Below are positions 27,867 through 29,076 of a stretch of DNA of 64,000 nt, in pieces. Below the pieces are notes generated by a model. It worked only from the letters and a program-made list of their open reading frames with translations. It had not been told where the DNA came from and did no database searches. The stretch's first letter is position 1. Each line of letters begins with the position of its first letter. The DNA is taken from contig CALXSE010000003.1 of the NCBI GenBank assembly GCA_944391085.1, positions 54,143 through 118,142 of the forward strand. Direction: 5' to 3'. Source of the stretch: an uncultured Kiritimatiellota bacterium. Lineage in GTDB: Bacteria; Verrucomicrobiota; Kiritimatiellia; RFP12; DVOR01. A program made the position numbers and the translations under genes.

Positions 27867-27957
27867 TGGCGGAGAGGGAGGGATTCGAACCCTCGGTGCC
27901 CACAAGGAGCACACAAGATTTCCAGTCTTGCGCCTTCGACCACTCGGCCACCTCTCC
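27867..27957 (-). tRNA. tRNA-Ser (anticodon GGA)
   Basis: Revcomp reads GGAGAGGTGGCCGAGTGGTCGAAGGCGCAAGACTGGAAATCTTGTGTGCTCCTTGTGGGCACCGAGGGTTCGAATCCCTCCCTCTCCGCCA. It has a 7-bp acceptor stem, a CTGGAAA anticodon loop, a long variable arm (class II), a GTTCGAATC T-loop and an encoded CCA. Confidence 0.9.
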
Positions 27958-28292
27958 GGAAAAACGCCTCATAGTATGCCATAATCCGCCCCCTCCGCGC
28001 AAGCAAAACTTTCACGCCGGCGGCCAAAGGGAAAGGAACCTCGAGCGGACAGAGGATTATTCCACCCGTTGGGCGCCCAAGACCGGCAAGGCTTCCAAAG
28101 GGAGAGGGCCCAGACGGTCGTCGTCACGTCCCCGCGATATCGTACTCATATATGGCGCGGTCGATGAGGCGCCACGCGCCATCCTCGCGGAGCACAAGGC
28201 CAAGGGGCACGCCGTGCGCTGGCAAATCGCATAACCCGCTTCCCAATTGTTATACCCTATCCGCGGGAATGTCCAGCAAAAACGGACTTGTC

Positions 28293-28328
28293 CACACTGT
28301 AATTGCGCAATCGCAGGAAAGAAGAAAC
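28293..28328 (+). promoter_or_regulatory. Recurrent motif copy B, 160 nt upstream of the serine recombinase gene; contains perfect palindrome ATTGCGCAAT
   Basis: gtcCACACTgtaattGCGCAATcgcAGgAAAgAagaaac. Confidence 0.5.
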
Positions 28329-28488
28329 GAAGAAGAAAAGGGCGCACCAAGGAAACGAAAACAGCGCCGGCCTCACAACGCCTGGGAGCAACGCCACCAC
28401 CGCCTCCTGACACCTGCCATCCCAACTCCCCAAACGCATCCCCCGCCCGCCATCCGCTCCCCCCGCACCCCGAAAGGCCCCCCGACCC

Positions 28489-29076
28489 ATGACTTACGGC
28501 TACATCCGCGTCTCCACCGACAAACAGACCGTCGAGAACCAACGCTTCGAAATCAAGCGCTTCTGCGCCAGCCAGGGCCTCCGCGTCGACAAGTGGATCG
28601 AGGAGACCGTCTCCGGCACCAAGCCCTGGTCCCGCCGCCGCCTGGGCAAGCTCCTGCGCCACGCCCACGGCGGCGACCTCCTGCTCTGCTCCGAGCTGTC
28701 ACGCCTGGGCCGCTCGCTCTTCATGATCCTGGAGGTGCTCAACCACTGCCTCCAGCGCGACATCCGCGTCTGGACCGTCAAGGACAACTACCGCCTGGGC
28801 GACGACATCCCTAGCAAGGTCCTCGCCTTCGCCCTGGGCATCTCCGCCGAGATCGAACGCAACCTGATCTCCCAGCGCACCCGCGAGGCCCTCGCCCGCC
28901 GCCGCGCCGAAGGCCTCCCCCTCGGCCGGCCGCAGGGCACCCGCACGCGGCGCCTTGCCCCCCACCGCGACACCATCCGCCGCCTCCTCGCCCAAGGCAC
29001 CCCAAAGACCCGCATCGCCCGCCGCCTCCGCGTCAACGTCGAGACCCTCCGCCGCTTCCTCAAACTGGAGCCCTAG
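28489..29076 (+). CDS. Serine recombinase (resolvase/DNA invertase family, Hin/Gin/Tn3-res-like) with C-terminal HTH
   Basis: MTYGYIRVSTDKQTVENQRFEIKRF... carries the catalytic Ser-containing YxRVSTxxQ motif. At 195 aa with a C-terminal basic HTH (TRIARRLRVNVETLRRFL) it is typical of small serine recombinases. Confidence 0.85.
   Translation: MTYGYIRVSTDKQTVENQRFEIKRFCASQGLRVDKWIEETVSGTKPWSRRRLGKLLRHAHGGDLLLCSELSRLGRSLFMILEVLNHCLQRDIRVWTVKDNYRLGDDIPSKVLAFALGISAEIERNLISQRTREALARRRAEGLPLGRPQGTRTRRLAPHRDTIRRLLAQGTPKTRIARRLRVNVETLRRFLKLEP

Follow-up and report, generated by a model that had tools for sequence, protein, structure and literature searches.

The stretch of DNA analysed here, 64 kb from a contig of an uncultured Kiritimatiellota bacterium (hereafter the window), encodes on its plus strand, at 28489-29076, a serine recombinase of 195 amino acids that the initial annotation had singled out as standing alone near a tRNA gene. 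We find that this gene, mpi, codes for a member of the Mpi family of DNA invertases, and we consider it fairly probable that it is a chromosomally fixed, vertically inherited invertase that most likely acts in trans on targets beyond the window, that its adjacency to tRNA-Ser is ancestral and that the spacer between the two genes is a lineage-specific insertion. Mpi-type master invertases are the engines of surface phase variation in gut Bacteroidales, and the presence in gut Kiritimatiellia of a conserved, solitary gene of this family, set firmly among housekeeping genes, suggests that a little-studied, uncultured lineage of the Planctomycetes-Verrucomicrobia-Chlamydiae (PVC) group likewise uses programmed DNA inversion. 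Several proteins from Kiritimatiellia-type metagenome-assembled genomes (MAGs) are already named as Mpi family by NCBI, and the result is one of annotation level, with no new mechanism; together with read-level inversion calling, the enzyme provides a handle for locating phase-variable loci.

The family assignment comes from the NCBIfam equivalog model NF009949 ('master DNA invertase Mpi family serine-type recombinase'), which matches residues 1-193 of the 195 with 291.6 bits (curated cut-off 272), and the protein shares 60-70% identity with NCBI-named Mpi-family proteins, some of them from Kiritimatiellia, in a collection of 5.8 billion proteins. Pfam recognises a Resolvase domain (6.9e-35) and, weakly, the C-terminal helix-turn-helix (HTH) domain HTH_7, and the best match among solved structures is the Gin invertase (4m6f, E 8.5e-16), with the Tn3 and gamma-delta resolvases ranking lower. 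It can be seen from an alignment of family members with Gin that R7, the catalytic S9, R72 and R75 are invariant. The protein carries ELSRLGR as a variant of the DRLGR motif; this is not a sign of decay, since all seven family members that were aligned have the same variant. The earlier description of a small recombinase of the Hin/Gin/resolvase type was therefore correct and can be narrowed to the Mpi family, with the catalytic residues intact. Judging from its sequence, the mpi product is probably an active serine invertase of this type.

Other classes of recombinase were considered and rejected. A large serine integrase does not fit a protein of 195 amino acids without the large C-terminal recombinase and zinc domains, and the corresponding models score far under their cut-offs (CcrA 29.2 against 700, XisF 18.2 against 375, CcrB likewise far under), as does the model for IS607 transposases (31.7 against 110). 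A Tn3/gamma-delta resolvase was discarded because there is no adjacent transposase (the neighbours are DUF362, tRNA-Ser and tlyA), because the spacer contains no repeated subsites and because the structural match is weaker than that to Gin. The composition of mpi is fully native. In a genome of ~70% GC, its GC content at third codon positions (GC3) is 0.94, compared with 0.94-0.97 in the genes for EF-G, L20, Era and TlyA and 0.89-0.97 in most clean gene calls, and with 0.80-0.82 in the accessory genes of the window (those for Fic, leucine-rich repeat (LRR) and PEP-CTERM proteins).

On one side of mpi lie a DUF362/Fe-S (ferredoxin) gene and tRNA-Ser(GGA), and on the other tlyA, sppA and era, with tlyA starting 51 nt downstream; the tRNA, the lone recombinase with its YIRVSTDKQ motif and the tlyA-sppA-era neighbours are all present where the initial annotation had placed them. 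tRNA-Ser(GGA) occupies 27867-27957 on the minus strand (ARAGORN; Rfam RF00005, 64.3 bits) and has orthologues in contigs L011 and L225. A scan of the whole window with Rfam returned nothing beyond this tRNA. ARAGORN also called a 101-nt 'tRNA-Asp' at 1957-2057 on the plus strand, which the Rfam tRNA model misses at its gathering threshold; GC-rich coding DNA has probably given rise to a spurious call here.

The window is 100% identical to a gut-metagenome scaffold in ENA, and its closest named relatives are Kiritimatiellaeota MAGs. We compared it with ten same-species contigs that encode the identical recombinase protein (L001-L010) and with contigs of two related species; these comparisons rest on assembled contigs, which give majority arrangements only, and rare rearrangements could escape them. 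Gene order is the same in all of the same-species contigs that reach far enough. In L225 (Mpi 92% identical, ~92% nucleotide identity) the order is L20-L35-RfbB-DUF362-tRNA-Ser-mpi-PEP-CTERM gene-tlyA-sppA-era-trmH, and in L011 (Mpi 89% identical) it is RfbB-DUF362-tRNA-Ser-mpi with a tRNA-mpi spacer of 77 nt, so that the spacer measures ~66-77 nt in both related species as against 531 nt here. Among 60 other Mpi-family loci, a tRNA gene lies within ~200 nt in only two, and tRNA adjacency is therefore no family trait. From these alignments we take the tRNA-Ser-mpi adjacency to be an old conserved gene order and not an integration scar; the synteny that the initial annotation had itself named as speaking against its proposals is thus found in two related species, although the immediate flanks of mpi vary.

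The length of the spacer is explained by inserted DNA. The alignments with the two sister species extend from the tRNA as far as ~28008-28015 and pick up again at ~28486, and ~470 nt of the spacer (28016-28485) are therefore a lineage-specific insertion, which is present in 10 of 10 same-species contigs and in place of which L011 has 16 nt and L225 ~17 nt. The segment at 27958-28015 is the ancestral tRNA-mpi intergenic DNA (95% identity to L011 5819-5981; 93.5% to L225 3609-3762) and presumably holds the tRNA promoter region. A 130-bp part of the spacer (28037-28166) varies among strains, being present in L001, L003, L006-L008 and L010 and absent from L002, L004, L005 and L009, strains that are ~98% identical. 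The junction of this indel shows an overlap of ~3 nt, and no further copy of the segment was found.

The initial annotation had described the spacer as ~530 bp of non-coding DNA of lower GC, and this is borne out (531 nt, no credible gene, GC 0.55-0.62 compared with 0.67-0.78 in the flanks). Its further proposal, that an in-frame, protein-like tail within the spacer is the end of a decayed gene, fails on several counts. No frame of 28014-28290 has a coding signature (GC3 0.54-0.68), the 72-residue plus-strand peptide of the tail has no match at E<=0.001 among 1.84 billion representative proteins (phmmer), a Pfam scan of the tail was negative and the 130-bp indel runs through it. Likewise, a stop-free stretch of 41 residues on the opposite strand (28127-28249), which holds a 40-residue open reading frame (ORF), gave no homologue in a word-indexed search.

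Between mpi and tlyA, where the window has 51 nt, L225 carries a gene for a 213-residue PEP-CTERM-anchored protein (4427-5068), and accessory DNA has thus been accepted on either flank of mpi in different lineages. In L011, the RfbB-DUF362-tRNA-mpi block is bordered on both sides by repeat-rich non-coding DNA (2390-3535 and 6590-7470) that holds ATTGGCTG runs and, just 3' of mpi, inverted arms of 62 nt that are 84% complementary and 407 nt apart. Here the homology to the mpi of the window stops 15 nt short of the window's stop codon, and farther out the arrangement departs from that of the window, ExbBD lying to the left of the block and gltX to its right. A small element related to this repeat-rich DNA is found at window 11489-11600.

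Four other close homologues (69-79% identical), two of them from Kiritimatiellia-type MAGs and two without a stated taxon, are each solitary between housekeeping genes, at different places: PolA and ThiC, HisS and BPSS1860, a Na/H exchanger and endonuclease III, and an ABC transporter and YjeF. Such solitary placement would be the habit expected of a trans-acting 'master' invertase. In Bacteroides fragilis, Mpi, also a solitary family member, inverts 13 distant regions (PMC4747536), and as the mpi described here similarly stands alone among housekeeping genes without an adjacent segment flanked by inverted repeats, we regard action in trans as most likely. The mechanism we propose is drawn from the established chemistry of the Hin/Gin/resolvase class. 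Dimers of the enzyme would bind two inverted copies of a short site and synapse into a tetramer; Ser9 would cut four strands, forming 5'-phosphoseryl links, half of the complex would rotate by 180 degrees and religation would invert the DNA between the sites. Inversion of this kind would flip promoters or the specificity segments of restriction-modification (R-M) genes.

We searched for the targets of such inversion. The window has no inverted repeats flanking short intergenic segments or promoters, and no sequence of the spacer has an inverted partner within 1.5 kb. Nor does mpi lie in or next to a segment bounded by dyad sites of ~26 bp, the arrangement of a Hin/Gin-type local invertase, and there is no TaqI_C specificity sequence in the window. 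Comparison of strains across 2.7-39 kb and 45.6-62 kb of the window showed no inversion, and what looked like a difference of 93 nt in L221 proved to be a scaffold gap of Ns. The core of the inverted repeats of B. fragilis Mpi, taken here as ARACGTWCGT, has no exact match in the window and no intergenic pair among its 14 one-mismatch matches, and its inner 8 nt, ACGTWCGT, are found at two sites, no more than chance would give; the site preference of the enzyme may differ in another phylum.

Several of our results weigh against the interpretation of mpi as a fixed, trans-acting invertase. No inversion target of mpi was identified in the window, and for this reason we infer inversion activity from homology only; the search covered the 64-kb window and contig fragments. 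The NF009949 score exceeds its cut-off by just 20 bits. A sequence for a TaqI_C-type R-M specificity domain lies beside the invertase in at least 25 of the 80 closest genome loci, and as these loci adjoin their substrate, trans action is not the sole habit of the Mpi family. Finally, both immediate flanks of mpi vary between species (the 470-nt insertion here, the PEP-CTERM gene in L225 and the rearranged, repeat-rich right flank in L011), and this could reflect recombination activity close to the gene.

Several of the TaqI_C-adjacent loci have a second, inverted copy of the specificity sequence together with inverted repeats of 26-38 nt, which makes them R-M specificity invertons, and some members of the Mpi family would thus seem to be local invertases that act on R-M specificity. 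In many gut Bacteroidales, Verrucomicrobiia and other MAGs (L011-L090) the TaqI_C sequences are found 50-70 nt from mpi; examples are L027 6655-8264, L075 4146-5925 and L079 6699-8440. In 32 of the 80 loci (40%) the contig breaks off no more than 300 nt beyond mpi on its 3' side, compared with 7 of 80 on the 5' side.

A potential explanation that would not need to invoke distant targets is that mpi is a leftover local invertase, the ancestral partner of which (for example, a TaqI_C R-M specificity inverton) has been lost, leaving the enzyme without a substrate or co-opted for DNA binding or regulation. The frequency with which TaqI_C sequences directly adjoin mpi in its closest relatives, several with inverted specificity pairs and flanking inverted repeats, would fit such a loss, as would the lack of both a TaqI_C sequence and any recognisable substrate in the window. 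Set against this, the catalytic residues and full length of the protein are conserved in at least three syntenic species (89-100% identity) and solitary copies persist in several Kiritimatiellia-type MAGs, which argues for continued selection on an active enzyme, and B. fragilis Mpi is an example of a solitary enzyme of this family that acts on sites far away (PMC4747536). We therefore regard a leftover enzyme as unlikely.

A different source of possible target sites is a dispersed module, one copy of which lies within the spacer. The window contains exactly two occurrences of the 20-mer GTCCACAnTGTAATTGCGCA, at 28290-28309 (plus strand) and 50691-50710 (minus strand), where 0 are expected by chance. 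The first is part of module copy B (28282-28400, minus strand; nhmmer E 4.7e-23 over nearly the full profile, and alignment A1), which comprises a degenerate hairpin, a C/T-rich tract and a 25-mer at 28285-28309. The second is part of copy C (50581-50718, plus strand; repeat search and alignment A1), which is inverted relative to B, has a strong hairpin (-43.2 kcal/mol, z -3.0) with a T-run, a C/T-rich tract and the 25-mer at 50691-50715, and is the only significant partner of copy B within the window. A metagenome-wide scan for CACANTGTAATTGCGCA gave at least 120 stretches; among the matches examined, those in L116 and L173 are related copies, with flanks unlike those of the window, and the remainder are chance 16-mers. 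It can be seen from the alignment of the four copies that the module is ~120-140 nt long and consists of a GC-rich hairpin with a T-run, a C/T-rich tract of ~45 nt and the 25-mer TGCGCAATTACAnTGTGGACnAnTC, which is invariant across all four and beyond which the homology ends abruptly. Copy C and L173 have a strong hairpin, copy B and L116 a degenerate one.

Beyond the 25-mer, at a distance of ~3 to 27 nt as judged by eye, each copy is followed by a differing sigma-70-like promoter and a differing gene. At copy B the promoter is at 28246-28275 on the minus strand, facing the tRNA and away from mpi; it is the sole promoter-like match in 27700-29200 (0.1 expected) and is supported by the strain alignment, in which an alternative -10 element (by eye) reads TATAAC here and a perfect TATAAT in other strains. 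At copy C it is at 50719-50748 on the plus strand (TTGACA-18-TAGCAT; sole promoter-like match in 50300-51100, 0.0 expected) and faces a gene for a BspA-type LRR surface protein of 2380 amino acids (51039-58181, plus strand). This gene, described for context only, has a signal-peptide-like start at 51039 and 22 stretches matching Pfam LRR_5 when scanned on a longer ORF from 50967, and an exact look-up of its protein found nothing on record. A large secreted GH2/discoidin-like protein (L173) and a putative glycosyltransferase (L116) are encoded downstream of the other two copies, both assigned by inspection; copy B is followed by just ~290 nt and then the tRNA. The relative orientation of module and promoter is the same at both window copies, and the module faces away from mpi at copy B and from the HU-HIG gene at copy C.

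Among five strain sequences, no part of the spacer is better conserved than 28260-28345, into which fall the -35 hexamer and the greater part of copy B; it has one variable site, whereas 9 of 80 columns vary in one flank and 23 of 67 in the other. The module is thus probably functional, as a promoter-upstream element, and the lineage-specific insertion brought in one copy of it plus an outward-facing promoter. L173 4236-4384 is 98.7% identical to window 50568-50716 along 149 nt, the homology ending sharply in DNA that is unrelated on either side, and L173 and L116 share an extra long hairpin and T-run (CGTCGTCGG...CCGACGACG TTTTT) on the far side of the module. In sequence, the module suggests a recently duplicated or converted repeat family. 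Sigma-54, extracytoplasmic function (ECF)-type and reverse-direction promoter readings of the 25-mer were tried by eye and did not fit.

The initial annotation had pointed to the palindrome ATTGCGCAAT, which is indeed present at 28302-28311, and had supposed that related motif copies near the Fic genes could be partner sites of an active recombination module. A second exact copy of the motif does exist; it lies upstream of the LRR gene beside HU-HIG, 8 kb from the second Fic gene, and the RCGCAAT boxes upstream of both Fic genes show no significant similarity to the motif at copy B (best matches 7-12-mers, E >=0.4). The palindrome is not conserved, being ATTGCGCACT at copy C and ATTGTGCAAT in strain L002.

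If the recombinase used the module as its crossover site, at the 25-mers 28285-28309 and 50691-50715 as well as at copies elsewhere, the outcome could be a 22.4-kb inversion, or the exchange or excision of promoter-gene cassettes (LRR, GH2, glycosyltransferase). The inverted pair of exact 20-mers, the position of copy B 180 nt upstream of mpi, the near-identity of copy C and L173 between unrelated flanks, the conservation of 28260-28345 among strains and the hypervariability of the HU-HIG/Fic/LRR locus beside copy C could all be read in this way. However, the junctions are parental in 10 of 10 contigs across copy B and in the sole independent contig across copy C, that is, in 11 of 11 junction-spanning contigs. 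Copy C is missing from 9 of 10 other strain contigs read at the HU-HIG locus (it is present in L095), and copies B and C can therefore be no obligate pair. No nearby inverted partner of the module is seen in the window, L116 or L173, sister species retain mpi without any module copy, and the homology is one-sided over ~120-140 nt, unlike a crossover site of ~26 bp with two half-sites. Dyad symmetry, as we read alignment A1, is likewise not conserved, with the palindrome confined to copy B and broken in strain L002. A crossover between B and C would in addition invert 22.4 kb of largely housekeeping genes and would provide no switch, since each promoter stays joined to its own gene and only the upstream halves are swapped. 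We consider it very improbable that the module copies are crossover sites, and the idea that copy B has its partner sites in related motif copies is not upheld, the only true partner being 22.4 kb away and inverted.

Even more doubtful is a specific form of this proposal, in which the module ending in TGCGCAATTACAnTGTGGACnAnTC would be the recognition site of the invertase and the enzyme, instead of flipping small promoters, would recombine dispersed copies upstream of surface and glycan genes (BspA-LRR, GH2 and a putative glycosyltransferase), moving or exchanging whole promoter-gene cassettes. If true, such recombination would explain the hypervariable HU-HIG/Fic/LRR locus, and it would amount to a genome-scale, serine-recombinase-driven cassette system in Kiritimatiellota. 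As things stand, the link between the module and the recombinase is unsupported. Two apparent leads were also discarded. In L116 an apparent inverted pair (73%, 119 nt apart) is the stem of the upstream terminator-like hairpin, which is also present in L173, and the likeness of the motif 'TGGACGATT' to inverted repeats near mpi in L027 and L075 is coincidental, those repeats being the W-D-D-F coding sequence of TaqI_C domains.

The HU-HIG/Fic/LRR locus is hypervariable among strains in several respects. A direct repeat of 181 nt (98% identical), at 50399-50579 and 58216-58396, brackets a 7.8-kb unit that contains copy C and the 2380-residue BspA-LRR gene. Six other strain contigs (among L091-L100), one of which (L092) is 100% identical to the window, join Fic directly to HU-HIG via one copy of this repeat and have no LRR unit; either the unit is rapidly gained and lost by way of the repeat or the assemblies have collapsed here. 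L097 and L099 have lost the body of the Fic gene and carry an inserted AAA_14/DUF4143 gene at 58631/58645, and in L100 FabH abuts the 181-nt repeat. The two Fic genes of the window (12711-14045 and 58783-60414) encode proteins that are 30% identical over 130 amino acids. Both are preceded by clusters of RCGCAAT boxes (12570-12680 and 58450-58600), the mutual resemblance of which is marginal and which include the palindrome AACGCAATTT-CC-AAAAAATTGCGTT and a unit of ~42 nt repeated twice; these boxes may be a shared operator. Elsewhere, an inverted repeat of 87 nt (85% complementary) at 12376-12462 and 45908-45994 matches the parts of two ORFs, 11743-12447 (plus) and 45923-46753 (minus), that encode their C-terminal regions. 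The latter ends in a Pfam PEP-CTERM motif, and the orthologue of the former in L221-L223 has a weak match to PEP_exosort_dom.

The least probable of the explanations considered is that the locus is the remnant of a mobile element or island at tRNA-Ser, with the recombinase as its integrase or resolvase and the spacer as a decayed cargo gene: the gene does adjoin a tRNA, the spacer is AT-richer than its surroundings and a 470-nt insertion and a 130-bp indel have occurred between the two, but the protein is a small one with native GC3 and without the C-terminal domain of a large serine integrase, the supposed cargo has neither homologue nor coding signature, the tRNA-mpi pair is kept at the same place in three lineages, two of which have only the short spacer, and tRNA proximity is rare in the family. 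Integration at tRNA genes normally hits the 3' end, which for this minus-strand tRNA is 27867, and mpi is therefore found on the opposite, 5' (upstream) side. The attachment-site (att) duplication that the initial annotation had proposed to look for is not there, as tRNA-Ser with 60 nt on each side gave no repeat longer than 15 nt against the whole window (blastn-short), its 9-15-mers being at chance level. We conclude that the island-remnant reading is largely refuted, and that the idea of a tRNA-targeted island can be ruled out in favour of a vertically inherited Mpi-family gene.

Compared with known systems, mpi resembles tRNA-linked islands and prophages in tRNA proximity only, and differs from them in being a small serine invertase of native composition and conserved synteny, on the wrong side of the tRNA and without att duplication. 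With the local invertases Hin, Gin, Cin and Pin, which are located within or beside the DNA that they invert and work with an enhancer and Fis, it shares the catalytic domain, the fold and the HTH, Gin 4m6f being the best solved match; identity is about one-third (34% to the aligned Gin) and there is no adjacent invertible segment here. The TaqI_C-linked Mpi invertases, which make up the bulk of the closest genome matches, are nearer relatives, with 60-67% identity, the same length and the same motifs, although the window mpi has no TaqI_C sequence beside it and is instead followed by tlyA after 51 nt. B. fragilis mpi lies head-to-head with the tyrosine recombinase gene tsr19 (PMC4747536), whereas the neighbours here are a tRNA and tlyA, and the two systems differ further in that ours belongs to the phylum Kiritimatiellota, to a genome of high GC content and to a window without promoter segments flanked by inverted repeats. 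In its overall form, however, the protein is like B. fragilis Mpi (Ssr2), the invertase of capsular-polysaccharide promoters: each has ~200 amino acids and a C-terminal HTH, and each is encoded by a single chromosomal gene outside its substrates, which in the case of the mpi described here would be the predicted distant targets.

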